Part shown: piece after piece, positions 1,831-49,990 of the stretch
Layout: every line of letters begins with the position of its first letter
Position numbering within the stretch: position 1 is the stretch's first letter
NCBI GenBank assembly: GCA_000934665.2
Contig: KZ538462.1
Span: 1-64,000 of the forward strand
Length of the DNA stretch: 64,000 nt
Reading direction: 5' to 3'
Source: Catajapyx aquilonaris
Taxonomy: Eukaryota
The notes under the pieces: model-generated
The model's input: only the letters and a program-made list of their open reading frames with translations
Told to the model about the DNA's origin: nothing
Databases searched by the model: none
Program-made: the position numbers and the translations under genes

Positions 1831-2453
1831 CATGAATGGTTTTGCTTGCTTGTAATGTTTTACTTACTGACCCACATAGTCAATGAAATCTTAGAGTAGG
1901 ACGTTAATTGGACAATCATCCTGTGTCTCTGGAACATCCTGATTAAAATCTGCAGCTCCCAACTTCTTCAAAGTGAGATAATTGATGACAGTATGATGCT
2001 CAAAACTGCCAATACTGAAATTTGCAGTGCTCTCGATTTTTTCCATATCTTTTACACGATTCATATGGGGATGGTGACAAGACATGCCTTGTGATCAGGG
2101 CAGGAATGCCAAGGGAATGCCTACGGTGATCAATTTTCGTGTCTATTTAAAAACTTGGTCATGGAAACACTCATTACTCTCCTGATGACCCTCACAGATC
2201 CGCATTCCCCAAACTGCACTGCTTAAATTGCAACACTGTACAATCACCTGAATGAAATTCAAGTACTGGATTTCTTTTCCTCCTTTATTTAAATAACACA
2301 CTTGTTTTTTTGGACGGTCTCACTACAAACAACAAAGACTTGGAAAAATGGCATCATTGAAAATCACAACATGCAAAAAAAACTTCCCTCTCAAGAAATG
2401 TGTGTCCAAGTGGGAAAGATGCGTGGATGAAACAATTTGGGCTGCAGATCTTC

Positions 2454-5400
2454 TTAATAAATGACGTTCATGGGTGACCCTTTGCAAGATGAAGTCACTG
2501 CTTCTTCCAGGGTATTGTCCAGCTTCCTGTAGTTGTTGCTGTTTGGCCTCTTTCCTCGGGAATTGCGAACTTTCCTGCCTTCTATCACAAGTGCAATTAT
2601 CTGAGGAAAGAGCATTATATTATCGAGTCTGATTCAAATATAGCGACTGCCACATGACACGATTTAAACCCCAACAACAAAATAACATTAGGAAAACTAC
2701 CCATATGTATTACTGGTAATGATGAACTTTTTACAAGCATAACAAGTACATGACCGCATTTAAAAATTTAAAAATTGCAAAATTCCATTGAACACTTGTG
2801 ACACTCCCCTTCTCATTAGCGTCACCGCACATTCCTCCAAGTAACTAACCTTCCAAGTGATGAGTTCATTGCTCTCCATAAAGTAACTAACCTTTTGTTT
2901 GTTGTGGAACAGTAGGTACCCAATAATGCACATGATGACCATTGTTAAGAAATATGCAAAGAAGTGTGAATCTTCTGCATCTTGAAAACTTTGCACTGGT
3001 TCGACAGGAACCTGGTTCATTGGCCTACTCTCCTCCTTGGGGCTTTGTTCTGAAATGAAGTGGATCATTGGAAAGAATGACATTGCATTAATCATAATAT
3101 GCAGATGAGCTACTTTCGACAAAATGCTAAATCATTAGTAGTATCGTGCATGTAACGACCGCCAAAATGCCACTGATTCTCAGGCTATTCATGTGCATGG
3201 TAGTTGATTAGGTCTTCATGCATTTTAAAAGCATTACACCCATCTCACCATTCATGGACATGTGTAAGGAATTGTCGTGTCAATGGCTACAGTTGTTGTA
3301 CCTGTTGTTTGAGTAATGGTAGGCTATGTTATTTTTTCTGGGCACATAATCTTACAGAAAATATTAGGGAACAACGATATGCAGACAATCAAGAATGTGT
3401 TACACCTCTTCTATCATAAGTTTGTTGCTAATTCTCCTGGGACACTCGTATAATAATGTTGATCATTTCTTGCAGCAAATACAAAATATAGTTATTCAGA
3501 TATCAGCCAGTGGTCACTTACAAATCGGCATGTCTGCATTCTTTGAACAATAACTTTTTTGGGCACATTTTCTGACAAAAATTAGCACCTTTGCATGGTG
3601 TACATGTTGAAAACTCACTGCAATGCAATGATGCAAAAAAAAAGTTGGAATTTTGTTGTGGACAATTATTATTCTGTAAAGTTTTTTCAGCACATACTGA
3701 GTCTGTAAATTGGGGATGGATGCATGCTGCATGTGCAAGGTGACACAACTGTTGACTAAAAGCACACTGGTTTACACAGATAATTATCTCATGGCCAAAG
3801 GGAACTGAGTGTACAGTGTGACAAAGTTAGAATTTCCATGTAGATAATAGCAGTAGGATACTCATAGGAGCAATCCAAGAACATGTTCTAGACTCACAAG
3901 TTGGAGCAATGAATAAACTGTAGCTGATCTCTGCCTTCAGAGAAGGCCTGCTCTTCGTGACATTTGCAAAAGCAGTCTGAAGCTTGCTACTGTTCCGTCT
4001 CAACAACATACACTCTCAATTCCTTCTAAGCCACATTTAGACACGCAGTGCATAAAATTTAACAATTAATCCCACGTGTATTAGGAGAAAAAGTGAAGGT
4101 TGGTTATTAACATGTCTGCAGATGTGTGCACAAAAGATTTACATGCTCAACAACTTCACAATAAACATGCAAATCCTTGTTCTGCCCTCGTAGTGAAAAA
4201 TAATGACACTACACAGGCATGAATAAGGGTTTTGCTAATTTTTTTTTCTCCCGTGCTCTGCAAGAAAAAGGTGAATAACAGCTGCAGAAAAATCAGGAAA
4301 GATGTACAAGTTCTAACAAGGAGGATTCAGGCCTAAGACATATTAGTCTCGTGAAAAATTACACCATACCTAGCTTTTCGGTGTACTCGTCATCATAATC
4401 TGCATGAGGAGGTAAAAGAATTAAAAAATTTATGATTGTACAATGTACGAGGGATTTAAATTATTTTATTCTTTACTGGCTCCTGATTTATGAATTTATC
4501 CACTTATAAAAGCAATTATTTTGCCAGATGCATTGATTTTTTGCGCTTTTCCCCCTTAATTGGTAAGTGTGGCCAAGGCAGAATTATTTCTTAATGCAGC
4601 TTGATATGCTTCAGTTTTTCACTGGCAGAAATTTCACTTAAAGAGGACGATGAGACGAGAGCCAGTAATATCATTTCACGAGGGACGATGAATTGAGTAT
4701 GTGTACCATATCTCACTTAACCAAAGTCTTCTTGACCCTTCCTGGAATATGTCACATTAATTCAACATCGACACTGAATCACCACATATTACGAGGCATC
4801 AAATATTGGACTTGAAGTCAGATTTGCCAAGAAAGCACCACAGATATAGCACAAGTCAATCAAGAAATGGGTCACATACTCAAATCATCTACTTAAACTT
4901 AACACTAGTCTACAGTAGTTTATACATACAAGCAGCCTCTGACTTGTGTAAAAATTTTGGACACGAGGAAATTCTATGGAATGAACTAGTAATGTTTTAT
5001 GCCACCGATTTTCAGAAAATATGCTCAATTATTGCGGCAACTGCACACATGAACTTGCCCACCAAGGCTTACTTTCTCACTCACTCTACATCGACTACAT
5101 GTGATAGACATTTGCACATATTCTGGGCCTCGCAAGGAATCCCTTTTCACTCAGAATGACCTCAATAGAATACAACAGAGATTCCAGTATTGATATATTT
5201 ATGAGGTACAGAAAAGGTACACTAACGAAATGGTTACGTAAAACTCGAATTACGCATAATGTTGCGGAACTATCCACTTACTTAAGTCAGGACTGCCTGT
5301 AAAAGACTGCATTGTGTGTGCCACTTGCATTATAAAAATAATCCAAAAATACTGAACACTGAAATTAAATGAGAGTATCATATGGAGCACATGGAAGCCT

Positions 5401-7133
5401 AAATTTTGGCATTAAAAATTCATACAAGTTCAATTGTGGCATTCTGCAACTTAGATCAATCTCACACCTTATGACCTACAAAGTCCACTACAGCCTTGCA
5501 AGTCAATTCCTTGCAAAAAGGTATAGGAAATCTTAATATCTTAGCATATTCAGAATATTAATTGTACAAGAGAATAAATCACTATTTACAGTTGTGACTC
5601 ATACAACATTTAAGTAACAAAAATCCATCCTCTCATTTTTAACAGAAAAATCTACAATAATAGCAATACACCATAGTTATGCAGAAATTTACAGCCCTCA
5701 CAATATTACTACTCCACAGTTCCAATATATTTAAATTAAATTTAAATTTAAAATCCAGCCCAACAATACAATACCTCTGGCACTCATACAATACCCTAAT
5801 ATAATTTAATTACACAAATACTTTAAAAGAAGTGAATTGGCACCTATATTTACCCTCAATGTTTGAAACCTCAACATTCGCTGTCTGCTTTCCCATTTCA
5901 TTTTCTTCGTCTTCATTGGCCAAAGTCAAGGATTCTTCCCCTTTCGTCTGTCCTGTTTCTTTAGGAACTGCATTTAAGGCCGGTTTCGTATCAGGTTTCT
6001 CAGCTTCAGCAGGTGCCTCTTGCTGGGCAGGAACTGATTTAGGTGGCACTGGCTCCTTTTCTGGGGCATAATGTGAGCTCCCTTGATCTTTGAGACCATC
6101 CCCTACATCACTTGCTTCATGGCCTGCGCTTGCGGCACTTACTACATCCTCATTCTTCTTAGGTTTCACTTCAGGCTGAGCTTTAGATGGTTCCTCATTC
6201 TTTGTGGCTTCCTGAGGGTTAGGGCCTTCAGACAATGCTGCAGCATTTACAGCATCTAGAGCGGTGGTGCTCGCTTGGTTGACTTTGGCTGATGCAGGTC
6301 CTGTCTTTGTTGAGATGGGTGATTCTGGTTCATTCCGAGGTAACGGGGAATCCAAATTGGTTTCACCAAGTCCTTGTTGATTACCTTCTACTGCATTGGG
6401 TGTGGAAATGTCTATTGGGCTGGATTCATCTTGGGGTTCTGAAGAAGAAAAAAAATCGGCTGTAGACAATAGGCTGTACACCTAGTAATTTATATCAGGT
6501 GTCCATTTTCCCCACAACTTAACATTAACTTAACATTAACTAGTATATTGTTAATGTTTACTATTGTGCCAAGATTTGAAAATGCAACACACACAGTTGT
6601 AATTAATTGCCCCTAAGAATATAAAATTCTTTGTGTGTTTAAAGCATGACAAAATAATTTTCAGTGAAATCAATGACACTCAGGTCATTTTTCTTAATGA
6701 GATGGACAAAAAAAAAATCACAATCTATGCAGGTGTTCCTAATAAAACACTCCTAATAGTCATAAATTTTGGCACCAAGCTGCTTTATGTAGCAATTACT
6801 TTTTCATATTTACTTTCAGTGATGGGATCAACTGGAATGTTTTCAACTAATTGTTCATTTGATTGTTCGAGCCAGATGAGTGCAGTGCCTCCTAGATCAA
6901 TCAATCAAATGATTAATAAGTCAACCAGCCCAGCAGAATTCTCCCATGCCATAATTAATTGAGGGAACAACACTGCTATTAATCAGGACCAGCTGAGAAC
7001 AGCAACATATCATCTCACATGGCAATAGCTTCTCTTCCTTTATGCCCCTTTAATGTGCCTTTGAACAAGACACACTACCATTTTCTTTGATTACCCTTGA
7101 AATATTTAGCCAAGTGTATGGCTCTATTGCAGG

Positions 7134-7185
<52 letters not shown>

Positions 7186-9407
7186 AGCCAAGTGTGTTTT
7201 CACATAAGGAACCATGAAAACATGCACAGCATGCAGTCCTTAATTTCCGCAGATATATCCTTCGCAATAGCAGCACACGTGAATTATTGCCTGGTTTGTG
7301 ACATTTGAATAGACCTTGCATTGAAGGCCATATAGCCAATGCCTCATTAGGAATTCAAATCCAGCATGAAAAGCCATCATAAAAATGCACCTGTTTCATC
7401 CAGACGCCTTTGAGGCAACAACAATATAAAATTCTGATCTAACATCATGCAGGGAAAATGGAAGAGTGCAGAGAAGCAATAAGAAAATGCAGCACACTCT
7501 TGCCAGAAATGAAACCTATTGAGAGGTCTCGATTTGCAAAACAATGACGTTGTCAGTAAAATGCATTACAGTGAAGCTACAAGCACGATGCAGGGAAAGG
7601 CGTGGCACTCATCTTGGTCCTCCATTCCTTCGATTTTCTTTAAGAGGAAATGCCTCTTGTTGATTTAGGCAATTTCAGCACTATTACAGAGATAATGACA
7701 ATTTTCATGATGCCACCCAAATGTACTTTAGAAAACATCCTGCCCTGTCAGATCACCCTGCAAACATGTGGGATTAGGGGTTAGAGTAACAAAAAGGATG
7801 TTTCTAGCCATTTAAGTGGGTGATGTCATGACATTTTGCAGGAGCTGAAACACCCTATGGTATTTTAATATTTTAAAAAATTTCCCAATGTACGGCCAAG
7901 ATTAAGTGCACCACCTTGTATATCAAGAGTGTGTGTAACATGGACTGCCTGCATCTGGTTTTCCTATAATAAGGCTCCACACTAACTCACAAAACATTCT
8001 CCCCTACAGACATCATGCACTGCATTCAATGGAGAGTTCCACTGAATTTGACTTTCATAAAGAGCAGTGCAGCACCAAAATACGCCGCATTAACCAGACA
8101 GATTAATCAGCAGGAAATCATAATACCATACTTGTCCTTGCCAAGTGCAAGGAATGACATTATCTGACCACTTTTTATCACACCGAGCACTCATCTACAC
8201 ACCACTGAAATACTAGAAATTAGGAAAACGCTAACGCAGCAATTCTGACCTTCATGATCGGCTTCATCTCCAGCACCTGGAGCTGCCTGCTGTTTATTCC
8301 CATTGGCAGGTTTATGTTCCTTTTGTAGTATGTCCAGTCCCCAAATCAGTGCGGTGCACAGCTGATTTACAGGGGCACATCCCAGCTGGCATGAGCTGCT
8401 GTTAGTCACAATTTGATAGAAGTTATTGTAATCATTATCTGGTTTAATGGTCACCAAGGACAGGATTGTTGAGCAGAAGTTTTCTGCCGTGAGACCATCA
8501 ACATCTTTGGGTAAAGTCGTAAACAGACTTGCATCTGAAGGCATGTCAGCAACATTGTTAGGGACATGACATGCCCTCTTAATGGTGTCAAACAGGCCGT
8601 AGCAGAGGAATGGCATTGGGACGCGCAGGGAAAACCTGCAACAAAAGAGTATCATTTTAACACATTTTTAAATATTTTCAATGGCTCTCTAGGAGGAAGG
8701 CCACATAAGGGTATGTAGCAATGACACTGAGGGGTTAGTCACTTGATTCTACAGTATAGTGTATAATGGACTCTACGAACTTCGACTGAACTTCACGAAC
8801 TTTTTCAGAACTTTAGTAGGACTTTTAGTCTCGGTGTGTGATGGACTTTAAGAGCGACTAACCCCTTGCACTGAAGGATTTGCCGAAGAGATGTCATGGC
8901 AAGAGGCCATTTAGAAGAAAATAATGTAATCATCAGAAGTTTGTCCCTTCCTAACTGCTCTCTGCGCCAGACATTTATGTTTGGACACAATCATAATAAC
9001 ATTACCCTGCTCTGACCATCCCCTCACCTGCTATCAAACTTGTTCTGGATGGGTTCGTCGCAGAACACATTGAGCCATTCCTGGAAGCCCCACGTTTTTT
9101 CACTCTCGTTGTAACTCTCAATGGGAGGGAAGACACAAGGAGTCCCCTTCAACCTCTCCTTGTCCAGAAACGCAACGATGAGCTGGGACAGCATGTCCTC
9201 TTCCTTCTTCTCCTTCTCCTCCTCATTTGTAATAAGATCCTGCACACTCTTCAGCAGTGCTGTGTGCTGCACTTGATGCCCAGACACTTCGGGTTGTTGC
9301 CTGGAAATCGCCTCTTGTTCCTGTCCCCCAGGCGGGATCATCGGCGGCGGGGCAGCGGCACACGCCCAGAGACAGGCTGCAAGAAGGAGGCACCCCGCCG
9401 AACCCAT
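2454..9407 (-). CDS. TGN38/TGOLN2(KCT2)-like type I membrane protein with Cys-rich N-terminal domain, about 560-590 aa
   Basis: Phase-consistent exons 9028-9407, 8250-8635, 5854-6438, 4370-4399, 2892-3049, 2454-2600; optional 6814-6891 and 5282-5296. Signal peptide (MGSAGCLLLAACLWACAA), 8-Cys domain, Pro/Glu/Ser-rich stalk, EDSHFFAYFLTMVIMCIIGYLLFHNKQKIIALVIEGR TM/juxtamembrane signature, and cytoplasmic YRKL (YxxPhi) ending NVIY*. Confidence 0.85.
7118..7183 (+). mobile_element. Extremely 5'-truncated poly(A) retroposon insertion
   Basis: 23 nt plus an A43 tail, flanked by the 12-bp direct repeat TTAGCCAAGTGT (7106-7117, 7184-7195). Confidence 0.75.
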
Positions 9408-9489
9408 CGCGGTCTTTCCTGCCCGCCTCGCACCGCTGTCTGTAGGCCTCGAACTTCACGGAGACGTGCCAGAAGAGGACAGTCGAATT

Positions 9490-9645
9490 CAGTGGGCCGC
9501 CATCTTGGTTTTGGGCACGTCAACTGCTACTCCAACAAGTCAAGCCGGTAGCATAGCTGCTACATTCCGTTGCATGTGATTGGTCCGATCTGTTCAATCC
9601 AGCTTCGTTATTGGTCAGTTCATCCGAGCTGTTTACACGTGAACA
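9490..9645. promoter_or_regulatory. Probable bidirectional housekeeping promoter (TGN38-like / RNF181)
   Basis: Lies between head-to-head genes. YY1-like AAGATGGCGGC (minus, 9496-9506), two CCAAT boxes 31 bp apart (minus, 9579-9583 and 9610-9614), E-box CACGTG 9636-9641. Confidence 0.5.
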
Positions 9646-10125
9646 TTCTCAATTTTTTAATCGAGTTGAATCATGAGTTAAATATTGCAAATTTTAATTA
9701 TGATTCGAATTTTAAGCTGCGTGCTTATTTTTAAACGGTTTAAATCTACTGTCATGATGAGATGGGTTAATGATGCTTCGTTTTCAATTAGTTGACGAAA
9801 TTAATTATTTGGCATTAAATTAGGCAAGCCGACAATCACGTGCGGAATGATTTGCAGGAAAGGTTTGGAAAGCTGATTCCTTCAGGTCGGGAGTCAGAAC
9901 CAGCTGATTTTTGTCTTCTTTGTGAAAGTCATCTAGGTGAGAGGCACAGAGTGTTTAAGGTTAGAAAATTAATGTCATTCATACTCTCTCGGTGTCGCAC
10001 TTGTCAGAACACACATGCATTTGCAGATCATGCAGCCACCGCAGTAAAGAAAGAAAACATTGCATATTAAACATTGTCAAGTACGTGGCTGCAGAACGCT
10101 GAGTTTCTTGCATGCATGCCTTTAG

Positions 10126-10183
<58 letters not shown>
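10126..10183. repeat. (AAT)n microsatellite
   Basis: Perfect trinucleotide run of about 19 units. Confidence 0.95.
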
Positions 10184-10185
<2 letters not shown>

Positions 10186-10290
10186 GCATTGAATATAGAG
10201 TTACCCCGACAAGTTAGATGTCGCAATGGCAGCGATGTGTTTCAAAAACGTAGCTGAAAATTAATTAGTATCCTTCGTTGCAGGTGAAAC

Positions 10291-10918
10291 ATGAGCGGTT
10301 ATTTTGAGGAGCACAATTGCGAGCCACTGGCGGCGGGGCAGCAGCCTGACCATTACCTTCACTTTGCCCGACTTCTGCTGGACTCAGGGCACTGGCAGGA
10401 CATGCAGCTGGAGTTCTCGCAGCTGTTTGGGGATGGGCAGCGTCCGCCCCCTGCTACGTCAAAGGCCGCTAAGGAGGGTCTGGAGGAGAGGAAGATACTG
10501 GAGGACAACACGGGGAACAAGCAGTGCCCCATTTGCCTGAAGGACTACGAGGCAGGGGAGACGGTGAAGGTGCTTCCTTGCAGACATGATTTTCATCCCA
10601 CTTGCATCGGGCCATGGCTTGAAAAGGTTTGTATGTCATAAAGCAGTGTGCTACAATCTCGCAATTTTGTCACTTGACTAGAGATTTTGTTTACATGTTG
10701 TAATGACTGGTTGGTGATTTATATTATGTTATTTTTACGTTTTATTTAGGAAAATGTCTACATTTCCATGTGTTTTGTTTCAGACCAACTCATGCCCCCT
10801 CTGTCGTCATGAACTTCCAACAGATGACCCTGACTATGAAATGTATCGCAAGCAAAAGGAGAGGGCTAAGCAACGTGATGCTGATATTGAAGTACTGCAT
10901 AACTCTATGTTTTCGTAG
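10291..10918 (+). CDS. RNF181: E3 ubiquitin ligase RNF181-like, 156 aa
   Basis: Exons 10291-10626 and 10784-10918 (GT-AG, phase 0). N-terminal [17 protein letters not shown]2 CPIC...[34 protein letters not shown]-terminal LHNSMFS*. Confidence 0.9.
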
Positions 10919-11505
10919 CTCTATGCAATTGCATAAAATTGCACAATTGTTAATACAGATATCGGTGTGATATTTGTGTGAATTAGAGTATTATACCGGT
11001 ATATTGATTTGAACTGGTTGTGGAAGAACAGTTAAGCTACCTAGAGTGGTAGAATCATTCAATATGCAAATAGTTATAATTTAAATTAATGTACTGTACC
11101 AGGTTGCCAATGGAAGTGCATATAAAATCACTTGATGGGACCAAAGGAAAGTTTCCTAATGGACATGCATCTGCCATATCTGTTCAATGTGTTACTGTTA
11201 AGCATCATTTTGTATTAATCACATTATGAAAGTCCTGGTGATGGAAAATAGTTCATATTATAATGAATAAATGGCTCATGTCTAATTGATTGCTTTTGAA
11301 TGTCAGTTAATTGAAAAAAATTACACACTGCCATATGTTTGGTTCTACAGTTGCAGAACATAATAATGTTGCACAATTAAAAACATTCCCTCAATACAGT
11401 CACTCTCATTTAAAACTTTGCTTATGTCTTGTCCAAAAATTTGTTGCAGGTTTTTGGCTGTTCGATTAACTTGTCATTTTCTGAATAGTGGTCAGAATTT
11501 TAAGG

Positions 11506-11585
11506 TACAGTTGAATCCAGATGTAACAGACTTCAAGGGACCACGGAAATATGTCTGTTATAACCAAGGTCTGTTATATTGAAAC
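11506..11585 (+). mobile_element. Possible pogo/Tigger-type MITE end (degenerate)
   Basis: TA|CAGTTGAATCCAGATGTAACAGACTTCAAGGGACC with internal TCTGTTATA repeats. No partner TIR was identified. Confidence 0.35.
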
Positions 11586-12334
11586 AAACTGATGCATTTA
11601 GATGGCTAGTGATAAATCTACAGCATATAGGTTTAGGTGATACAACAAGCTTGTGTGGTCATTCACAACTTAGGTAGTGTAGTATGCAATCTTCTGTGAC
11701 AATCAAGATATTACATGACTGGCATGTCAACAGGAAGGTTGTGAAAGGGAGAATACTACTCTATATCCCTCAACTGAAGAACAAACAATGAGTCAGCCTG
11801 TGCAAGTGAATCACATGCATCAGATTTTGCTATCTCTACCAGGAAAAGAAACAATCCTGTCCATAGTGCTATATAATAAAAATAATGCTGATATTGATGA
11901 ATCACAGAAGTTTAAAAGACTAATCTAATGAGTGGAAATATTTTATTCAGATGACAATAATATTAATATCTTTAAATAGCAATTTCAGTGATAATGCTAC
12001 AAAAAACAACTCCACATGTGAACACATAATTATGTTGCTTTCTCTTATGGTTTCTGTATGGATATTTGGAAAATTTATACACATACGTAATCATGATGAA
12101 CTAGATTTATGACACTTTATTCGTACACCATACAAGTATTGATAAGTCAAGGGGCAAGTTCACTTGCAATCACATTAACATTTTAAAAGGAGCTTGAGCA
12201 GTGATAATACATTTTCACATGCATCTCTAATACTATTGTACATATAAATAAAATGCAGATCTTGTACTGTACAGAGCCTTTCTTTTGCAGTAGAGGCCTA
12301 AGGGCATTAGTTCTTTCCACTTTTATTCTCACTT

Positions 12335-13669
12335 CTATACACCATGGTTATGAGTGATGACGTATGTGTTGCGTTGAATTATGTATGTGTTGTACACATT
12401 TCCAGAAGAATCAGTTCTTCTAATGACGTTATTGCCATTTTCATCTTTTGATTTTACACCACTTAAAACTGCCTGCAAGTCCTCTTCAAGTGACTCGTGT
12501 AGATCCACGACTGGCATTGTTGTTGCTGTATCCATTGAGCTTGAGGTTGTCGTCACCTCCACCTGTCGCTCTGATGCTCTGTGGTTCTTGATGTTGTTAT
12601 TGCTGGCGACTTTGTGGCCACTACTGTCAAGTGCAAGGTGGCCCAGGTGACCCATTTTAATCACAGGTTGACTGTTTTTATCTTCCACCTTTATTGCCTC
12701 CGCACCATCTGAAATTGATAAGCCAGTCAAAGAATGCCGATAACATATATCAATTAATTGTTGGGTAACCACATTCCTGGCAGTGAATATAATTAAGTTA
12801 CTTGCTACTTTTTCAATCCTTCAAGTTAGTGTTAATATTACTATCATATTTGGTTAACATACTGATATGTCTTATGTGTTTAGTTCCTTCCTCGTGCACA
12901 GACAAGGGGGTTAAATAAAGATTGATTTATTAACTGAAATATTATTGTATTGACATGCTTAAGCCGGCTTAAGTTAATATGCAGGTATAACTAGTTACAG
13001 TACCTTTAAAGCAATTGACTATTGAATTGATTATTACTTATTAGTATTAATGATCTTCAATTCTGACTATAACTTCTCCCAACTGGTCATCAAGTACTTA
13101 CTGCTGTTGTCCATCTGTTGGTCATCTCGAACATTTCTGTAAGCCGTAAGCCCCCAGAGCAACGTGACGCACAACGGATTCCCATCAGCACAAGCAGCTT
13201 GGCACGTCTTCTCGTTGCTAATCACCTTTCGAAACACGCCATACTCGTCACTCTCACTAAAATCGACAGTGGGCAGCAACACCCTCATCGTTGCACAAAG
13301 AGTCTCCTCCGTCACCAGGTACTTCCCAATTTGACTGGGCAGCTTGACCATCGATGCCTCGTCTTCAGGGATATCCATCGCTTCCTCCAGAGTGGCACCG
13401 CACGTCTTTTCAACAGTGTGGTATAATCCGTAGCACAAGTACTGCGTGGGCTTGTTGAATGCGAATTTCTCTGATTCCTTGTCCGGAATCCTCTCGTCGC
13501 ACAGGTTGGTCAACCACGCCCGGAAGTCATCGTCTTTGGCCACTGCTGGCGATGGGAAATCGCATTTGCTGCGAGTCAGAAGGTGGAGGATTCGGTGACC
13601 TGTTGACCTGGGGGCTGGGGTCACTTGGGTCACCGCGATGACCAGGAGAATCAGACGCAACCCGTACAT
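12335..13669 (-). CDS. Secreted paralogue of the TGN38-like 8-Cys N-terminal domain, 313 aa, no TM segment
   Basis: Exons 13102-13669 (donor GTAAGT) and 12335-12708 (TTTCAG acceptor), phase 1. Signal peptide MYGLRLILLVIAVTQVTP. All 8 Cys align with gene 1 (CDFP/CVFP, WL..LCDE/WL..FCDE, LCYGL, CQAAC/CQLGC, LCVTLLWGL/LCTALIWGL). Confidence 0.85.
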
Positions 13670-13699
13670 GGTGACGTCTCTGGCGTGATAGTGTCGGCC

Positions 13700-14300
13700 A
13701 GGTATAAATGGTCTTATAAGGTGCTGGGTATCGGTGCAAGTGATGACTCACGAGGAGATAAGCCCACTGATATGTCTCCTGGACGTTTATATCGAAGCAG
13801 ATGCCATACTGGTACAAACACTCTCATGTGACTGAATTTCAAGGGTTTTGTGAATAAAGTTTTTCGGGGAAAACGCTGCGCTGTGCTCCAGGGGATGTCC
13901 CCTGACACTCAAAATCCCCTCTCGGGCTGTTTAGCATATTCGCACACGCCACTTATTTGGCTCATACAGTACTTGTTAGCCCTTGACCTCTCTCATAGCC
14001 TGTTATTATCAGGGAGAAACTTTGCGAAAAAACGGCTTAAAATCAGTGCATCGTACACTCTTTAGTATAGACCGGTTCGGCTAAACCGTAGGCTACTCAT
14101 GTACTGCACGAGTAGGCTACTAAAAATATCCCGTATTTAATTTCCTGCGGAAACGACTCAGCGACACGTGATAGTTCGTAAGATTATCTGGGCAATAAAA
14201 CCGTCGAGGATAAGGGGAAATTGAGTATCGCTAGGTATCTAAGGTATATGTTTATCTATTCGGGGAAAATACAATATGACAACGGATATGGCACTTTTTC
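13700..14300. promoter_or_regulatory. Cluster of kappaB-like, AP-1 and GATA motifs between divergent genes
   Basis: TGACTCA 13744-13750, AGATAAG 13756-13762, GGGGATGTCCCC 13891-13902, GGGGATTTTG (minus, 13910-13919), GGGGAAAACG 13866, GGGGAAATTG 14214, GGGGAAAATA 14262. TATA-like CTTATAAG at 13713-13720. Confidence 0.4.
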
Positions 14301-15154
14301 CAAGCCTGTGTAGTCTATATTAAATTTTTTTTTTAATAAAAAAGAAATCGCAGTTTTATCATACCGCACCGGTACGTATCTAATTTTAAAACAATTCTCA
14401 TTAATCTAGGTTTGCGAATTGAATTTTATAGGTTATTTTCAGATTAATAAGTTACTGCTGGTGACCATATTAGCAAAACTATCATGTATGTATACAGGTA
14501 TCAGAATATAATTATTATCACGTATATAGCAACAATATAGTTTTAGTTGGCATTAATTTAACCTCGGTGGGGTTGTTGCAACTAAACTTTTTTCCCCGTT
14601 AATACATATTTAGTAAGCTATTGTACGCGTAGACTAATATCGATTATTAGCCTACATTATCTCTTGGCTAGCACAACACATTTGAGGCCCAGCATCTAGC
14701 GAATGAAACTGATAATTTTATTGCAATTAGGCTCCTCCTGCCCTCAATACTTGCGGATAATCCTAAGAAGTAAACAAACATCAACAAAACTAGAGGATGT
14801 GTCTACACACAACTTCCTGCACATATGTATGCAGATATGCATTAAGTTCATATTATGAACTATATAGTAGCCTACCAAGACTGTAAAACAAATGGCCGCT
14901 ATCGTTTCAGGATGTGGCGTATTGGAATTAGGATAAGATATAGTCACTCGATTAATTCATCATATCGCAATCCTATGCTAGAAGAAAAGGAGTAACTGAA
15001 GCAACAAATGGACCTTCCTAGAGTGTACTGTACGTATAGGGTAGCACATTTTGAACACTTTTGTAGGTGTAGTTATACAGTGCTAGTGTACAGAGTTACC
15101 GGTACTCATCTTCACTATAGAGGTCAAGAAACGTGCCAATAATAGGCTCCCATC

Positions 15155-15658
15155 ATGGCGGAATCACATTTGCTGATAGCTGCCGAGAATGGAAACCCGG
15201 CCATCCTGCAGTCGGCCCTGACCATGGTTCGGGCTTCAGGCGGCAACGTGAACTGTAGAGACAAAAACGCAAACACGCCCCTGATCCTGGCCGCCAAAGG
15301 TGGACACCTTATGTGCGTCATGCACCTCCTCCAGCACCCAGGAGTGGACGTCCACGCCAGGGACAGGATTGGAAGGACCTCTTTGTCGCAAGCGGCCGAG
15401 GGCGGCTACAGGCAGATCTGCGAGGAGCTGCTCAAATTGGGCGCCCTGGTGGACCGACCAGATGACCAAACCAACACGCCGCTGCACTACGCGGCTGCCA
15501 AGGGACACATAGAGGCGGCCAAGTTGCTCCTAGAACACCATGCTGATATTAACATGCGCAATAGTGACGGAAAGACGCCTGCGACTTTGGCCAGCGTAAA
15601 TGAGAAGGAAGAGATGGTCTCATTCTTGTTGGGATATCCGATGAATATGCGAATTTAA
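15155..15658 (+). CDS. Small ankyrin-repeat-only protein (5 repeats), 167 aa, intronless CDS
   Basis: Repeats LLIAAENGN, TPLILAAKGGH, TSLSQAAEGGY, TPLHYAAAKGH, GKTPATLA. Good Kozak context (ATCATGG). A likely 5'UTR acceptor lies at about 15120. Confidence 0.9.
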   Translation: MAESHLLIAAENGNPAILQSALTMVRASGGNVNCRDKNANTPLILAAKGGHLMCVMHLLQHPGVDVHARDRIGRTSLSQAAEGGYRQICEELLKLGALVDRPDDQTNTPLHYAAAKGHIEAAKLLLEHHADINMRNSDGKTPATLASVNEKEEMVSFLLGYPMNMRI

Positions 15659-19135: not shown

Positions 19136-22100
19136 TTACAATTCAGTAGTTTCCATCTTTTTGGCAACCAGAGGATTGCTTAACTTGTCCAGATGGTTGT
19201 AAATGTTGTGGTGGAAAGTGTCTCCTCTGTTCAAGTCATTCTGATCGTCTGGTGTGGTGATTAGCACACTCGAACGAACCTCACTGCAAATTAGCCGAAA
19301 ATAAACAATGATTTCCGGCAGACTGTGAAAATGAGGCACTTACGCTGTGTATTCTTCGTTGTAGACATCATTTTGTGAGCAGAGTGCAGAGTGGACAGAA
19401 TGCGGGGAAGTCCCATCGCTAACAATAGCATTCTCATCCAATGAATCCCGGCTCTCTGTGTTGTGGCTGAAATATTTTAAAATGTAAGGGTTATAGTTAA
19501 GAACATCAAATATTTTTCTGTTTCCCCAGGCAAACTTTTTGAAGGTTTTGTGATGATTTTACAGTCATGGTCTAACCTGAGTGAATCTTCATCCTCCTTG
19601 TACCACTCATTCTCATACGAGTGCATCCAAATGGGATTGCTTCCTTCAACGCTGTGTATATTTGTGTTAGGCACCTGGCCTGAGACTCTGTGTAAACTGG
19701 AGTCCCGGCTTCCAAAGGCGCTGACTGTGGCTGCCTTCAGCTGCCGCCTGTACCTGTGGCGTTGTGCCAGACACAGCACCAGCACAAGCAGAAGCAATAT
19801 GGCCATAAAGATGCACCCTCCCAGCATCCACATTGCAAGCAGGCCTTCCGTCTCTTCCCTGAGGAGGATGGCTTCTGCTGGTTGGGTGTCGATGACATTA
19901 AAATCTTTGAACAATGCATCCAGTCGCTCTGTGTTCATGTCTATAAGACGCAACACTTCCTCTGCTTCTAAGACGGTGTGGTCCCCACGGCTCACAAAAT
20001 GTAGGTACACGTCAGTCTTCGTCTTGTCCACAGATCCTTCCTGATTTGCATGCACTTTGTACTCATCCACATTCACTATTGCTCCAGTCACATTGCCCAG
20101 AATGCTGAAAAATATTATTACACATAAAGGTCAGATATGCAGAAACAAAAAAGATCATAAATCTAGAAAGGCAACTCACTCTCTGAAGATCTCTATCCTT
20201 TCCCTGACTTCTGCTGGGTGCAGTCGGACAACAAACTTGACCCTCTGATCTTCTCTCAGGAGATATATGAATACTTTGGCTTCATCTGATAAACCACCAG
20301 TGTCGTTCACCAAAACCTGTGTTAACATTAGTTCGGTATGAGGGACAATTGCAAACATACACTTGGACTATTTTTATGCAATTGTTTTAAAAAGGTCGCA
20401 CTTGCACATCTGACAAATTTCGGTGCATTAACACTGCGTTGAGTAGTAACATGAGAAATATTTTTGGCTCACACATTTGATACAGGCAGATATACTCACT
20501 GTAAAGTCAAAATATCCCTTCATTCCCTTCTGCGGGTCAAAATTGAGAAGCACATTCCCAGACTTGTGCTCAACCAAGAAGGGTGGTCGTCTGATGTGGT
20601 CCAAACCCTCAGCCAATGTCTGTCTGATCCCACCTTTGAGGTAGAAGCGGAGGTCTGCATTTTCACCCACATCCAAATCTATGGCCTGAGTCAAATAAGA
20701 ATGGATTAGAAGATAATAAAGCAGGCAAACATTTTAGAAACATTTTTTTGGCTTCAAACTCTCACCTTGACCTGTATAACCTCAGTGCCAAAATTCGTCT
20801 GTGTTGTAACTCCTCCTGTGAAAACCCTCTTCAAGAAGCGAGGTGCATTGTCATTCAGATCATTCACGTACACTACCACCTTCAGCAGGGTATCATCATT
20901 TGGGTTGAAAAAGCTGGTGTTTGCAGGCGACGAGTGGCAGTCCTCAGAAGCTCTGACTAGCAGCAGGTGGGTGTCTCTCACTTCCCTGTCCAGAGGATGA
21001 GTCACACGCAACTCATGCTGCAAGGGATCGAGGGCAAAGTGTCCCCCTTCATTCCCTCCAACTATGAAGTAACACACAGTGGACGGGCGCTGGCCTTCAT
21101 CCTCGTCCAAGTCATCCCTGTCCACAGTTTCAGCAAGGAGGCGACGCTCCAAGCCAGGGACAGCATTTTCTGAAAAAGTGACTTTAGTCATAGTGCATTC
21201 TGACCCACGAATGACAAGTATGGATGAGATATCTACCGGTAAAATTGACAGTGAACTCATCCACAAGGAACTGAGGCTGAAAGTCATTCACATTCCGGAC
21301 GTAAATGGTGAGGTCCAGATCTGATGACAGTGGTGTGGGCACTCCCAGGTCATGAGCTTCCACTCTGATCTCATGTACCTTCTGCTTCTCTCTGTCCAGG
21401 GCCACCTTGAGGGACACCACACCTGTGACCTCATCCACCTCAAAATGTCTCCAGTGGCCCAGCAGGTCTTGCCTCAGGCGGTAACGGACAACACCATTTG
21501 GACCCACATCATCATCCACTGCCCGAACCTGGATCACCGCCGAGCCTACTGTGGCATTCTGTGGATTTCAGACACATTGTTGCAAAATTCATCCGATGAC
21601 TGTAGTAATACCTTTTTATATGAACATGCAAAAATGATATTATTGACAACAATCACACGGAAAGTCCAGGTCGCACCTGATACATTGAGAATTAGAAATT
21701 CTTGCCTGCCATTCTCTATTGATGGTCTGGCAATTTCCGTAAATTAGTAGATTAAATTCCTGCACATACCTCTGGAATTCGTATGGTGTAATTCTGGGCT
21801 GGACTAACGAATACAGGTGCATGGTCATTGAAGTCAGTCACACACACATCCAGCTTGGCGGCTGCCACATTTGGTGGCTTTCCCATGTCTTTGGCTTCGA
21901 TGGTGAGGCTGTAGTTCCCAAACAGCCCTTTGAGAGGCCTGGCTGGGAAAAGCCTGGTTGTCAATGGGCTTGAAGGATCTAAGCGGAACAGCCCTGCAGG
22001 ATCCCCATCCCGAATGGAGAATGAAATCTGTGCATTTGGTGTTGCAGGATCGTCTCCATCTGTAGCTCTGATGATGGCAATAACTTCTCTGGGGCTGTGG

Positions 22101-25100
22101 AATTCTGTCACTGAGGCGCACTCGGAAGGCACTTCAATTACCGGGGTCTCATCATTCACATCTACCACCGTCACTCTACAACAAGAAAGCGGAATGCAAA
22201 TTGTTGCATACACTACTACTCAGAAATGAGAACCACCAAGCTCGTTCTGCACTCTATGATAATAATTAATAAGAATCAAACTACTTGTGGTAGCTAATTA
22301 ACCTTCATGCAATAATTACCCTATCTGCTTAAATGCATTCCGACTCTCTCCACTTGCATATCCAAATTGATAGTTATCCCAGGCTTCTATGATTAAATTG
22401 TAGCTCCCTTGTTCTTCTCTGTCCAAGACATCTGTCACTTTTATGACTCCACTCTCGGGGTCAATGGCAAACTTGCCCTGAAGGAAGTAAGCAAGCTGTT
22501 AATTCATTCCTGAAAAAAATATTAGAGAGCTCTACGGAAAGTCCTTTGGTACCTTGGATGATGTTCTGTCCAGTAGGTAGGTCACTTTTCCATAGTCGCC
22601 GGCATCAGCATCTCGTGCTTCTACAGTTGCCACAACAGTACCTGTTTTGATAGCAGAAGTTTCATGTATTAGTGCAACAGCAAGAAAATCTGCTGCTGGC
22701 AACAATATTCACTATGACAAATATGAACGGAACTAACCAACTTGCACATCCTCCTTGATAGACACATTTGCCACTCTGTCCACAAAGATAGGATTGTTGT
22801 CATTCTCATCAAGCACCTGAATCACCACAGGCACCATGTTAGATCTGGGAGGCACCCCTGAGTCAGTGGCCCTGACGGTGAGATTGAGCCAGGGGAAACG
22901 CTCCCTGTCTATCCGAGTGGCAGCCACCAGTTCTCCTGTGGCCGGATCCAAGTGGACCAGTTCCCTTACTTCCTGGGACAGAGGAGAACCATCACCCTCC
23001 AGCTTGTATGTTATGCTCCGGTTCCTGTCAGGGTCGTCTGCCACCAGGTTGGCAATAGGAGCACCCATTTTGGAGTTCTCCGGGATGGACTTGCGGTACA
23101 CCCCACGGCGGAATTGGGGGGAATTGTCATTCACATCTTCCACCAGGACAGTAAGGGTAGCTGTAGGTAAGTTTAGATTGTTCATGTTAAAGTTGACACA
23201 TGGAAAGTGTTGATAGCAATGGAGTGAAAAATGTCCAAAATAGTCATATTTTCAAAATAGGCATTGTACATATTTCAGAATTTTCACCAATAAAAAGTAG
23301 GTTCAATTCTGCACACAGTCCCCAATCAAACCAAGCCCCCCAACTCCCAGTAACATACCAGTAGCACTCTGCCTTCCGCCTACAGCAGCCAAGTCCTCAA
23401 CTTGAAGTGAGAGTTTGAAAGTCTCGACAACTTCTCTGTCAAGTGGCCTGGCAACTCTGATGACACCATCAACTGCATTTAGCTCAAAGGCTGAGGTGTG
23501 ATTGAAGTTTGGGTTTCGTAGCCGAGTACCCTCTTCATTACGTGCCTCTGAACGGTTGTGATCTATGGTGTACCTATTAGTGTTGAGCAAGTACATGTAT
23601 TAATCGGCTCATGCATGTTTAATAAGGTGAGGTCTGTCAATCCATTACCTGAGAAGAGGCCTGTCGTCTGGATCCAGTGCCCTGACCTGATGCACATAGG
23701 TTCCTACTGGTGCATCCTCCCTCACTCGTACAATTCCAGGTTCCAGAAATATTGGTGACTTGTTATTAACATCCTCTACTGTTATATTCACCAACACTGA
23801 TGCCCTCCTTTGCTCTGCGCCAGGACCACCATCCAATGCCAATACCTCGAGCTCATACATTTTGACCTTTCCATCCGTCCTGTCTGGATCCAGGCTAGCT
23901 CCAGCTGCCACACTTATGGCACCAGTCTCAGGATCAATCACAAACTTATCTCTAGCTCCTTTCTGTATCCGGTACACCACAACATTATTTGGGGCAGATC
24001 CATCCTCATCAGTGGCAGTAACACGCAGCAGTTCAGTGCCACCAGGGACAGTCTCAGACACTGACCTTGCATATGAACTGCGTTCAAACTTTGGAGCATT
24101 GTCATTTGCATCCTGCAAATGAACCACTACTGGCACAAGAGAAAACTGCTTTGGTCGGCCAGAGTCTTCAGCCCGGACTGTTAGATTGATTGGTCGGACC
24201 GAGCCGCGGCCTGGGAGGACCTCAAAGTCCAGGGGCATGCGAGGAAGGAGCACACCTGTCACTGGATCGAGGGAGAAGTTGTGGTGCGGATCTCCAGCCA
24301 CAATTGAGTAACGGACCTGGCTGTTTGCAGTGCCTGTGTGAATAAGGGAACAGCTGAGAATACAGTTTGATCCAAAACACAAGTCACATAATTTTGCATA
24401 AAGCAGTCATCCACTTCTACAAGACTGGATTCAGTTCAATAGGACATGGAATCAAAATTTATGAACATTATAATCATCATTCCAACTTCATTAAGCAAAT
24501 TAATTGGGAATTACATTTTCACATGGAACAGAATGCTACCAACACCTAAGAGTAGGGAATTTTTATTACCATTAAGATCAGCATCCCTGGCTTCAACTCT
24601 GAGAGGAGTGTTGAAATTCGCCTGGTTCTCCACCAGACGCACATCATACTCCCGCTGCAGGAAGACTGGAGCATTGTCGTTGACGTCATTAATGTAAAGT
24701 GTCAACTGGACTGTGTTTCTGTTGCCCCTTCCTAAATCATCCCGTGCCTCCACAGTCAGGAAATAAAAGGGTATCTGCTCTCGGTCGAACCCATGACGAT
24801 CTGTGCGAACTGTTATGACGCCAGTCTTCGAGTTCAACTCCAGCCTATTGAAAGTGATAAATATTGAAATGTATTGAATTATGTTGAGTTCAGGTGGCAC
24901 TTAACAACTGATAATCTCTACTCACTTATCAGCAATACTTCCAGACAATCCAGTGTATCTTATGCCAGAGGAGCCATAATTCCCTGAGTCTGCATCCATA
25001 GCCTGAACCCATGCCACAGTGGTTCCCTTTTTCGCATCTTCTGGTATGGACACTTCATAGTGCGGCTCATTGAACTCTGGAAAATTGTCATTGACGTCCA

Positions 25101-28100
25101 TGATGTGTACTGTCACCGAAGCGCTACTTGACTTCCGGCCAGTGTCAACCAGCTCCTCAGCAATCACCGAAAATTGGAGTGCTGGAATGAAATGTATTTC
25201 ATTTTTAGAGATATAATAAATTAGGCATCATGAGGCTAGAAAAGGGGATTTATTTCTTGCACACATGTTTCAAAATGCAAGCATAGCTCTGCGACAGAAG
25301 CAATTTCAAAATGTTACTAGCAACTTTCCAAACTGTCATTACAAAATGATAATGTAGTATTGCACAAGCAGGTATAGTCCATCAGTAAGTTCCCTCTACA
25401 TGCAAAGATGAACATGAGTTATGTATGAATGAAGTCATTCTATATGTAAACAAGAGAAAACTCCATAGTTAGCATTAACTCACGTTCGTGCAACTGGGCC
25501 CTTAGTAACTTATGTCTTATCCATTACTTTTAAAATGTCCTTAATTTTTTATTGCTGGTAAGGAGAAAAATTAAGAACACTCACCTTTGAATCTCTCATA
25601 ATCAAGCTGCGATGGATCCTTGACTCGTATCAGAAACGAGACCTCGTTTACACCCTGGTTTGGAGTCACTTCAAAGACTCCTCCATCACCAGTCAGGTAC
25701 AATCGAAAAGTGCCATTTTTCCCCTGTGAAATTAATTTTGGTCAAAATGTGAAAATTACGAGTATATCTCCTACCATGCACTGACATATTAAAATCATAA
25801 CAACTACGATAAAGTGTTAAAGTTTTAAAAGTTTATCACTGAAATCACTGAATCACTTTCAACAGAGTAAATCTGAATTATCTTATCTTATAAGAACAGG
25901 CCATTTAAGAAGTAACTTCACAAATGCAAAAAGCCACAAGAACAGGTTGTGTCAAGCATAAATACATTCAATATAATAAAGTATGTCATACTTGGTCATG
26001 ATCAAACACTTCCGGTATGGCTCCTCCTAGGAATGTGAGTGGGACATTAAGCTGCGCGTTCTCATTAATTTGTGCCTCATACGCCAGGCTTCGAAAGGTG
26101 GGCACCTCATCATTAACATCCATCAGGATTATGGTCACCTCCGTAGTGGCAGATGGGGCTGGGACTTCACGGGTTTGCTCAACAGCCTGATGAAAAATAT
26201 ATTTCAATGAATATCGATTCAATAAACCCAATTCCTGTACGTAATCAGGTCATAACTTTTGGGGCAACATCAAAATCTATGATTGGCATGGATCCTTGTG
26301 TACATAAATAATGGGAATCATGTTAAGCAACAAAGTTGCTGAGTGACAGCCTATTGTAGCCCTTTTCATATTGATGCCGAGCATAATCACCAACTGACCT
26401 TGATTTCCAGAATGTAAGCACCGCTGTTAGAGGTGATGCTCTCCCTGTCCAGCTTGTCCTTGGAATACACTACTCCTGATCTGGGGTCAATTGCAAACAG
26501 TCCTCGTGCCCCTTCTGTTATGGATAAGGTCACATTGTTGTTCACCCCTCTGTCACCATCTACTGCTTGTACTGAAATATAAGCAGACACACATTCAAAT
26601 GTCATATTTAAGAATTTTCATAACATATTTTGTAATATTTCAAGCCAGTAAATTGAATGTACAAAGTTGAATCAGAGATGGTTCCATCACCAAAATTAAG
26701 CAACTCACAATTAAATTGGACAAGGTGGACATAGTGTGATAATAATTTCCCATAGCACATCAAAGAATTATTTTCTTTAATCATACCTTGAAGAATTGGT
26801 GATCCAATAGGTATATTTTCAGGCACACGAGTAACAGATGGAACTACAATAAATTCAGGTGGTTGATCCTCCTCATCCTCCACTTTTACCAAAATTGCTG
26901 CCGTGGCTGTGTTGACCTAAATGACATGATGAAACATATTTACATGTTAAATCCAGTACATTAAGTGCATAGGATATCTATGATGAAACTGCCAAGAAAA
27001 GAAAGATGTAAGCTTCCCATATTGTGCAGGTGTGTTAACATTAACAATGTCACAACGTACTCTTCCGGTGTTGGCTCTGTCGACAGCTAGGACCCTCAAC
27101 TGATAGACCCTCTGTCGCTCGTAGTCCAACTCCTTCAGCAATCTGATGACTCCTTTGCCCTGGACTGTACTGATTGCAAACGTCCCACGCTCCCCTTCTG
27201 CCTCCTGGAGCTTATACACCACCTTGTGAAAGTTACGATTAAAAATATCAGTACAAGCATATACATGTTACACTGGTCACATGAACGATGAAACATAATG
27301 ACATTTCCCTTAGCATGGGTCAGTGATGACTTTCTTACCTGGCCGTAAGGCCCTTCATCCCTGTCCATGGCTTCCACAGTGGTTAAAACTGTTGGAGGTG
27401 TATTTTCCCTGACTGTTATGGTGGCTTGAAATGGTCTAAACACGGGCTCATTGTCATTGACATCTTCCACAAGAAGGAGCAGGCTCTGGGTCACATAGAC
27501 ACCATCACCCAAGCGTCCATCAGTCAAAGTCAATATTACTTGAAAAGCATCTTGCTCCTGGAAAAGATCATTTGTGTTGATGTAGGATGAATGATTAAAA
27601 AAAAGCAGTCCTCTGATGCACTATGACAAATTATTGCCACTCTAAACAAGTTGCATGGGAAGTATAGGAAAGGTCATGAGAATGACGACTTGGACTGGAT
27701 TAGGTAAGATGCAGATAGGAACGAGACATGCCTGGGAAAGATGTCAGGGCACAAGTGAGACAGGTTAAGATTATGGGGATGGGAAGGAATATAGGTAATC
27801 CCTTCATTACACATTGACCTAATGGAAAATACCCCCAAGCTAAAAGTATCATTAGCACATCTGAACAGGATGTGTCGGGACGTGTCAAGTGTGCCATATC
27901 TTGATCTGTTGTAACAAGTATTCAGTAACTCATCACATTTTCATCAACCATGAACAAATGTGACCATTGACCTTGATCAGAGGCTTAACGTGGTCAATTA
28001 CAATAGCTCCTGTGTGATTATTACTCACTACTCCTCCTCTTAATTGCTGTGTGAATTTTAACATGCACAAGGCATCTTGATCAAGTGATATAAACGTCCT

Positions 28101-28902
28101 ACTTCTCTTTCTCTCTGATGTGAGATCAGACGGATCTGATACTAACTACAACAGCAGCAAAACCTGCCTACAGTCTCTTCGCAAAGGATTTCCTCCAGAA
28201 TCCCTTTTTGCTACTACCTTCCAAGATTATTTTGTGCAAGTTGTTGCTTTTTCACCTTAAGTCTTTAGGTAGACTTAATTGCATTTAAAACACCTTGACA
28301 ACTTACTTCTCTATCCAACTCCTTGGCCAGGTACACATCAGCTTCGTTAGTCCCCAAGTTCTCAATCCTGAGGATATCACTTCCGGGCTCCTTCACCCCG
28401 AAAATCAACGGATCCCCATCTGGATCATGGCCTTTGAGTCGATACAGATGACTTCCTGCAGAAAATCACGGGAAGGTTAGAAACCCAATAAAGAGTGACA
28501 GTACTGTTACCCATAACCGCGGTCAACACCCCCCCAGCAACCAGTGTAAAGAGAACTTCTTTCCTTCACACTGATTGCTGAGATGAACAGTCAACAACAT
28601 GACGTACCAACAGGAGTTTCAGGACCTTCCTTCAACCGAAGCACAATCTCACTCTGGTCCTTCAGCACAAAAAATGGCGGCTGGTTGGCACTGGCGCCCT
28701 CCAGGAAGGTACAGCAGGTGCATATCAGCACCATCAGGACATGCCATCTCCTCCACCTCCACCATCGTCGGCGGCAGGTACTCACAGGCGACGTCGCTTT
28801 CCACCGACTGTAGGTCCGGTGCATCGACTCCTCGGCATACCATGATTCGTGCTGATTGTTCAGTCTGTCCTCTCGACGGTGCTTCTTCTTGCACGGTGAC
28901 AT
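19136..28902 (-). CDS. Cad88C: Cadherin-88C / cadherin-23-like non-classical cadherin, about 1940 aa
   Basis: 23 phase-consistent exons: 28608-28902, 28307-28455, 27339-27557, 27061-27222, 26787-26916, 26399-26571, 25992-26186, 25585-25723, 24926-25181, 24570-24844, 23649-24333, 23359-23573, 22738-23160, 22553-22641, 22320-22477, 21770-22175, 21237-21558, 20766-21169, 20500-20685, 20180-20316, 19577-20104, 19344-19466, 19136-19283 (5817 nt). Many LDRE/DxNDNxP cadherin motifs, one TM, cytoplasmic PNTNIHSVEGSNPIW and C-terminal ETTEL. The start codon is uncertain. Confidence 0.88.
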
Positions 28903-47138: not shown

Positions 47139-47428
47139 TCAAACGTTGTAAGTCACATTTGCGCTGGAATGGTCCTCTCTCTGCTTCACCTGCCTGTACC
47201 TCCTCCTTGTTGTGGGCGCTCCCCATGACTGCCCATGAATCCTCTTCATGTGCCTGTCCAGAGTGAACTTGCGAGCAAAGCCACTGACTTGGCACACTGG
47301 ACAGGTCAAGTTAAGCTTGTGGACTTGCTGATGCTGCTGGAGGGAGACCCTGTGTGTAAATGTCTTGTGGCACAGTTGGCACGCCCACTTGCGGTTTGGC
47401 CATGGCTCTAGTTCTTCCAAGGGTAGTT
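47139..47428 (-). CDS. fru: fru-like gene, alternative terminal zinc-finger exon 5 (two C2H2 fingers)
   Basis: Acceptor TTTTTGTCCTCCACAG in phase 1, matching the common-exon donor. CQLCHKTFTHRVSLQQHQQVH and CPVCQVSGFARKFTLDRHMKRIH. Confidence 0.7.
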
Positions 47429-49604: not shown

Positions 49605-49990
49605 CTGCGGGGAGGAAGAGGAAAAAACCAGCGTTAACTGATGCTTCTTACAGTTCCCCAAGAGAGTGCATATCACATGACTGACTTTGCAAAGCCCCTT
49701 ACTACCCTCTTGATGCTGTTAGATTATTGTTAAATAATGCATGCTGGTTTTCTAGATGGAAGGCTTGTTACCAATAGATATGTAGTTTAAGGAGTCAATC
49801 ATGTAAATTCCACGCCCTCAAGAATCTTACGACATCAGCACAGCAACTGAGGAATTACTGCTTCTGTCAATCTGTTAAATGTGCCCAAAGATGCTGATGA
49901 AAATATTTGCAATGCAAGCATTATGGTTTGATGTAAGCACATTTCCAGAGATTCATCGGAATGAGGAAATAATATCAAGTGGTCAATGTA

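Follow-up and report, generated by a model that had tools for sequence, protein, structure and literature searches.

An eight-cysteine domain shared by a TGN38-type gene and a neighbouring anchor-less paralogue in Catajapyx aquilonaris

We describe two neighbouring genes of Catajapyx aquilonaris (assembly GCA_000934665.2, contig KZ538462.1) that encode the same eight-cysteine (8-Cys) domain. Both lie within positions 1 to 64,000 of the contig, the 64,000-nucleotide (nt) stretch referred to here as the window. Judged by its sequence, gene 1 is the TGN38/TGN46 (KCT2-family) orthologue of this animal, a predicted type I membrane protein and a typical representative of a known family. The evidence supports gene 2 as an old local duplicate of the exon encoding signal peptide and domain, now joined to an unrelated last exon, and its product is probably soluble, secreted and ~33 kDa in size. 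By the same kind of evidence, the domain also occurs outside this genome, and TGN38 orthologues of insects ordinarily carry it at their N-terminus. We lean towards the view that gene 2 has been re-purposed as a secreted protein for a different extracellular partner, and the anatomy of both genes is far more certain than any function proposed for them.

Results

Gene structures and transcripts

Gene 1 (9407-2454, 561 residues, six coding exons) and gene 2 (13669-12335, 313 residues, two coding exons) both occupy the minus strand, with 2.9 kb between their coding regions and ~4.4 kb between their domains. An earlier reading made from the letters without database searches (the sequence-only reading) had placed the pair at 8250..13669 and about 4 kb apart. 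That spacing holds for the domains but not for the coding regions, between which a RING gene stands on the opposite strand, and the range was too short, as gene 1 continues to 2454 in six exons.

One public run (X1), of unrecorded kind, supplied contigs that were mapped to positions 2000-14500 and taken as RNA because of the spliced joints that they contain. Of the eight joints found, five correspond to the complete set of gene 1 introns, one to the intron of gene 2 and two to introns of the RING gene on the opposite strand. The spliced gene 2 contig of 1066 nt covers 13678 to 12220 and reads past the stop; its joint at 13102/12708, which the sequence-only reading had put forward for checking, removes a phase-1 intron of 393 nt. 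That reading had also expected no downstream membrane exon for gene 2, and none of the eight joints leads from gene 2 to any membrane exon, within one sample and with contigs, which drop rare forms. Contig depth was 36 for gene 1 and 9 for gene 2, values that were not used for ranking expression. At 6438, where gene 1 exon 3 has its acceptor, one X1 contig contains 248 letters without a place; positions 6430-6600 are single-copy in the genome, and 22 tested loose letters of this contig are absent from the window.

Domain shared by genes 1 and 2

All eight cysteines align between gene 1 (C91, 116, 138, 149, 181, 209, 213 and 220) and gene 2 (C36, 57, 79, 90, 125, 156, 160 and 167), and the motifs WLxxxCDE, LCYGL and LCxxLxWGL are common to both. 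In BLASTP, the spliced products are 33% identical over 126 residues (E 2e-23), and a comparison of both domains by exons only gave E 8e-21. Across comparisons the domain copies are 28-33% identical, with third codon positions near saturation. The shared cysteines and motifs, as well as the phase-2 intron that splits the domain in gene 1 only, had been noticed from the letters, and the intron is now seen as a joint in an X1 contig.

Gene 1 as a TGN38-type membrane protein

Gene 1 has two hydrophobic stretches, one N-terminal and one transmembrane (19-residue Kyte-Doolittle 2.35 at residue 490 of 561); the signal peptides of both genes were judged by hydropathy and sequence. The stalk consists of 248 residues (14% Glu, 12% Ala, 11% Pro, zero Cys), and the tail carries a tyrosine-based motif at residues 537-540, in register with insect tails, that reads YRKL and not YQRL as in the sequence-only reading. 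With the membrane and tail exons as query, 18 relatives were obtained from 54 candidates (E 4.5e-23 to 4.9e-12), 17 from insects or insect-like assemblies and one from krill, which upholds the initial TGN38-like assignment; no anchor-less relative was among the 18, although such a query could not find one. In the 75-residue membrane and tail region, gene 1 shows 64-69% identity with 12 insect relatives, compared with 56% for krill. The Pfam model PF17818 matched gene 1 exon 5 alone with E 3.2e-4 and 21.4 bits (curated cut-off 26.2 bits), matched 13/13 aligned full-length relatives at E up to 1 (best 5.9e-11) and, genome-wide, matched gene 1 exon 5 only. When exon 6 alone was used as query, none of seven candidates was useful.

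The domain in insect relatives

Of the 18 TGN38-like relatives, 15, all of them insects, carry a Cys domain at the N-terminus in matching register; 13 of these carriers were aligned, and the remaining two match aligned isoforms in their Cys positions. The domain occurs across Odonata, Ephemeroptera, Blattodea, Phasmatodea and Orthoptera. Krill (P0019, no Cys domain) and two Timema models are domain-less, and a Timema congener (P0014) has the domain. Schistocerca entries P0016-P0018 have lost C4 and part of the domain, and in P0009 C4 is displaced. Each Cys column is kept in 14/14 domains, except C4 (12/14). With a profile built from 12 insect domains alone, gene 2 reached 43.0 bits and gene 1 reached 18.6 bits; the 978 reported of 1000 shuffles reached no more than 8.2 bits and krill -2.8 bits. 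These scores, together with the 15 carriers, argue that TGN38 proteins of the insect type normally have this domain at the N-terminus.

Mean identity among insects is 25% for the domains versus 79% for the tails. Conserved domain columns are mostly Cys and hydrophobic core; one well-kept charged column holds Asp in 11 of 14 domains, including gene 1, and His in gene 2, and the family has no conserved polar pocket. The eight cysteines probably form four disulfides. The predicted structure is all-helical with moderate confidence (pLDDT 68), and comparison of this moderate-confidence model with solved folds gave no match. Pfam has no name for the domain in either copy, and over 16 alignment members KCT2 was the only convincing family, in 13 full-length relatives. 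Four kinds of helical disulfide domain were considered for comparison (Frizzled cysteine-rich domain, odorant-binding protein, saposin-like and CHH-type); all were absent from the Pfam matches (16 members, E up to 1) and from the fold matches listed for the moderate-confidence model. Two domain profiles run against PDB sequences gave nothing useful (best E 1.2 and 0.13).

The ESM Atlas and JGI metagenomes also yielded nothing useful, and neither did any of 363 candidates found with gene 2 exon 1 in a protein collection of longer proteins only. A profile search of 1.84 billion representatives, using a three-row profile of the two genes, returned one match, P0001, a 5037-residue Ser/Thr-rich repeat protein. 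It was rejected as spurious, the matched stretch being without Cys and unscored by the insect profile. The direct domain searches failed because the three-row profile gives known relatives at most 24.8 bits (E at least 1.8), and the blank of the 1.84-billion search is uninformative on secreted copies in other species. The literature searched, which left out most subscription journals, contained no paper describing this domain or a secreted paralogue of insect TGN38. Holometabolous insect orthologues presumably have similar Cys-rich starts, although none was retrieved. Given that there is neither a Pfam model nor a solved-structure match, the domain is a candidate new family, perhaps a new fold. 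In this sense it is still unnamed, as first described, but it is no novelty of this locus.

Gene 2 as an anchor-less duplicate

Gene 2 has a single hydrophobic stretch, at its N-terminus (19-residue Kyte-Doolittle 1.56). By hydropathy no membrane helix was found past the N-terminus, and the tail profile, at -3.2 bits, detected no YxxL tail; the sequence-only reading had described gene 2 in the same way. All eight of its cysteines are encoded by exon 1, and its tail, with 18% Ser + Thr, holds a Thr/Ser run. The idea that exon 2 is a decayed TGN38 tail was considered and rejected: just one relative in 13 came out below 0.05, the family profile test yielded 78/600, the hidden Markov model scored -3.2 bits, and DNA tests gave 90-266/500. 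The pairwise score of exon 2 with the gene 1 tail was reached by 11/2000 and 4/1000 shuffles. No reliable kinship of exon 2 to the gene 1 stalk or tail was found, and no second match in the genome.

A tree was built from 14 domains (12 insects and both genes), leaving out three near-duplicates and the three domain-less relatives. Genes 1 and 2 form a clade with support of 100/99, and their C7-C8 spacing is 6, versus 9-10 in 12/12 insects. The clade and the shared C7-C8 deletion argue that gene 2 is a local duplicate within this lineage, in agreement with the duplication first suggested. Genome searches with either copy returned these two only, which is a lower bound because a termite domain query missed even genes 1 and 2.

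A termite open reading frame (P0024, on a 10,462-nt contig) encodes a signal peptide and the unbroken whole domain in one frame; at residue 185 it parts from the mRNA-type protein in the way expected if a phase-1 intron were read through. In Timema, a partial model begins 19 residues past C8. Both indirectly suggest a single exon ending in a phase-1 intron as the old state. The phase-2 intron was thus probably gained in gene 1, not lost from gene 2; gene 2 does lack it, as initially observed, but probably by ancestry.

Constraint on gene 2 was examined over 151 codons aligned with gene 1, where identity at positions 1/2/3 was 75/83/46 (second vs third, p 2.6e-5). When neutral drift was simulated at 0.2 changes per site, the frame and all eight Cys stayed intact in 1/5000 runs, and at 0.3 or more changes per site in none. 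Of the two genes, gene 2 has the shorter end branch (0.92, versus 1.61 for gene 1). Codon-position bias, simulation and branch length together indicate that gene 2 is old and maintained. Along with the spliced contig, these results meet the two doubts raised in the sequence-only reading, that gene 2 might be unexpressed or evolving neutrally.

Features of the locus

Table 1. Positions of features of the two genes and of the gene between them in the window
Feature	Position	Strand	Basis or remark
Gene 1 exon 1, coding part: predicted signal peptide, linker, first quarter of the domain (C91, C116)	9028..9407	-	contig joint
Gene 1 phase-2 intron splitting the domain, gene 1 only	8636..9027	-	GT..AG, 392 nt, contig joint
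Gene 1 exon 2: remaining domain (C138-C220), phase-1 intron at end	8250..8635	-	contig joint
Gene 1 exon 3: low-complexity stalk, Glu/Ala/Pro-rich	5854..6438	-	contig joint, composition
Gene 1 exon 4: acidic micro-exon, 30 nt	4370..4399	-	joints on both sides, frame
Gene 1 exon 5: KCT2-like, predicted transmembrane helix ~2907-2963 (residues 490-508)	2892..3049	-	PF17818, hydropathy
Gene 1 exon 6: predicted cytosolic tail, YRKL ~2520-2531, stop	2454..2600	-	contig joint, aligned to insect tails
Gene 2 exon 1: signal-peptide-like start and entire 8-Cys domain (~13139-13591), phase-1 intron at end	13102..13669	-	
Gene 2 exon 2: hydrophilic Asn/Val/Ser/Thr-rich tail and stop	12335..12708	-	contig joint, hydropathy
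Gene 2 spliced contig span (record 5)	12220..13678	-	from 9 nt 5' of ATG to 115 nt beyond stop
TATA-like element, ~40 nt 5' of the gene 2 contig start	13712..13718	-	sequence; putative function
Gene 1 promoter-type motifs: CCAAT boxes at 9614 and 9583, AAGATGGCGG motif at 9497-9506	9497..9614	-	sequence; putative function
Intervening RING-H2 gene, 156 residues, coding 10291-10626 and 10784-10918, non-coding first exon	9957..10918	+	Pfam zf-RING_2 E 7e-11, contig joints

The RING-H2 gene, which we take to be RNF181-like, faces gene 1 head-to-head and gene 2 tail-to-tail, and is context outside the two-gene system. The TATA-like element of gene 2, set against the CCAAT boxes and head-to-head RING gene of gene 1, suggests that the two genes may be separately regulated, possibly with tissue-specific expression. 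We assume the AAGATGGCGG motif upstream of gene 1 to be a YY1-like site; its ATG starts an upstream open frame of four codons just 5' of the gene. Between the RING gene and gene 2 lies a short dispersed repeat (11505-11580; 40/40 scored matched, of 985 candidates), which accounts for two loose contig ends. Simple repeats, long poly-A and ATT/AAT runs, occur in introns and intergenic DNA (7138-7182, 1632-1703 and 10128-10184).

Elsewhere in the window, an ankyrin-repeat open frame of 170 residues (15146-15658, plus strand, Pfam Ank_4 E 9e-31) is divergent from gene 2. The list of open reading frames indicates a many-exon gene with a membrane helix at 19477-28938 on the minus strand, presumably cadherin-like. 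Exons bearing RING-like, zinc-finger and SAP-like motifs at 43826-45524 (plus strand) are taken to be RAD18-like. At 47139-62589 (minus strand) a BTB-domain exon is followed by several separate C2H2 zinc-finger exons, an arrangement that we assume to be that of alternatively spliced BTB-zinc-finger genes.

Discussion

It is proposed that gene 1 cycles between the trans-Golgi network and the surface by means of its YRKL signal. Like the insect proteins, it would present a folded domain, all-helical and probably closed by four disulfides, on the end of a disordered stalk ~250 residues long. Placed at the far end of the stalk, the domain could meet lumenal cargo or extracellular partners and, as a putative protein-binding module with a fast-evolving, variable surface, may help to capture them. 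Gene 2 would have arisen by tandem duplication of the first exon, with its signal peptide, whole domain and phase-1 intron end, and then been completed by an unrelated last exon. Under its own TATA-type promoter it would act on a different extracellular partner. With the copies only 28-33% identical and His in gene 2 in place of Asp, divergence of function fits at least as well as competition for one ligand.

Several points weigh against this proposal. Krill, two Timema models and, by description, mammals are domain-less and the grasshopper copies are without C4, so that TGN38 can apparently work without the domain or with a degraded one. The sorting region of human TGN46 is described as disordered in the main text of PMC10928510, which implies that sorting needs no folded domain. 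The tree is without close relatives, and both gene branches are long. RNA support comes from one run of unrecorded kind, as contigs only.

Alternatively, in line with the sequence-only reading, which proposed a cargo receptor and a soluble decoy or effector, gene 1 could be a receptor that cycles, and the soluble gene 2 product could bind its ligand too, as a competitor, a carrier or an adaptor in the lumen. The two copies have the same eight cysteines, shared motifs missing from the insect consensus and similarly acidic isoelectric points (4.6 and 4.7), and both genes are represented in run X1; moreover, according to PMC10928510, the lumenal domain of TGN46, when engineered to be soluble, still goes into the same export carriers. 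We nevertheless consider a shared ligand unlikely in view of the low identity with third positions near saturation, the His that replaces the charged residue kept in 11 of 14 domains, and the want of a conserved polar pocket in the family. A bolder version, in which hexapod-type TGN38 carries a new disulfide-locked, all-helical cargo- or ligand-binding fold, the first folded one in the family, with a secreted copy that competes with the cycling receptor or feeds cargo to it, is equally doubtful in our estimation. Alternatively, the domain may serve as a structural cap or an aid to folding or secretion with no specific ligand, and gene 2 may be a secreted structural or mucin-like protein, of cuticle, gland or gut as we imagine it, whose tail matters equally. 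Conservation nearly limited to Cys and hydrophobic core, absence in krill and degradation in grasshoppers agree with this, as does the Thr/Ser run of the gene 2 tail. On the other hand, the domain has been kept over five insect orders and in both copies here, and 18% Ser + Thr is low for a mucin; we regard such a role as unlikely too, slightly more so than a shared ligand.

Gene 2 exon 1 might also double as an alternative first exon of TGN38, giving a membrane form by splicing of donor 13102 to acceptor 6438. The two sites lie 6.7 kb apart on the same strand with matching phase 1, and contigs drop rare variants. However, the eight joints listed do not include this one, the contig of gene 2 is spliced to that gene's own last exon and reads beyond the stop, and such a transcript would need to run antisense through the RING gene and past three AATAAA signals (12327, 12121 and 11947), which together make this very improbable. 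Least probable of all is that gene 2 is a transcribed relic in neutral drift. Transcription is seen in one run only, and no gene 2 orthologue was found, in searches too weak to find one; but the open frame of 313 codons, the retention of 8/8 Cys, the strong codon-position bias, and a branch shorter and a family score higher than those of gene 1 all speak strongly against a relic.

Comparison with known systems

Insect TGN38-like predicted proteins (trans-Golgi network integral membrane protein 1/2) have an architecture identical to that of gene 1: a signal peptide, an N-terminal 8-Cys domain of the same order and spacing, a low-complexity stalk, a KCT2-type helix and a Y(R/K)KL tail. Examples are XP_063244334.1 (Bacillus rossius), XP_021939089.1 (Zootermopsis nevadensis), KAF4526445.1 (Ephemera danica) and PSN57551.1 (Blattella germanica). 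Unlike the insects, genes 1 and 2 have a C7-C8 loop of 6 residues (9-10 in insects) and are without a Trp kept in 10/12 insects, and gene 1 has its additional intron.

Mammalian TGN38/TGN46 (TGOLN2), as described, resembles gene 1 in its type I layout, its conserved membrane and tail region and its tyrosine signal, which is YQRL rather than YRKL. The main text of PMC10928510 reports that YQRL returns human TGN46 from the surface, and that its lumenal region, said to be disordered, is both required and enough for CARTS export and mediates cargo sorting. The word 'cysteine' is absent from that main text, and the comparison of the lumenal regions is by description only. C. elegans TGN-38, for which recycling to the trans-Golgi is described (PMC10166553), is likewise compared by description only. 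Insect-type TGN38 adds a folded Cys domain outside the coverage of PF17818.

Partial duplication that yields a secreted paralogue is a common evolutionary event. Secreted Frizzled-related proteins, which exist beside Frizzled, are soluble paralogues of membrane receptors. Gene 2 would parallel them in combining a signal peptide and a disulfide-rich ectodomain with no membrane anchor; no sequence or structural kinship between the two systems was found. For cargo recognition by TGN38/TGN46, the human lumenal region is needed for sorting yet disordered, according to the main text of PMC10928510. The compact folded insect domain would offer a well-delimited unit that can be expressed, structurally solved and employed as bait, with gene 2 as its naturally soluble counterpart.

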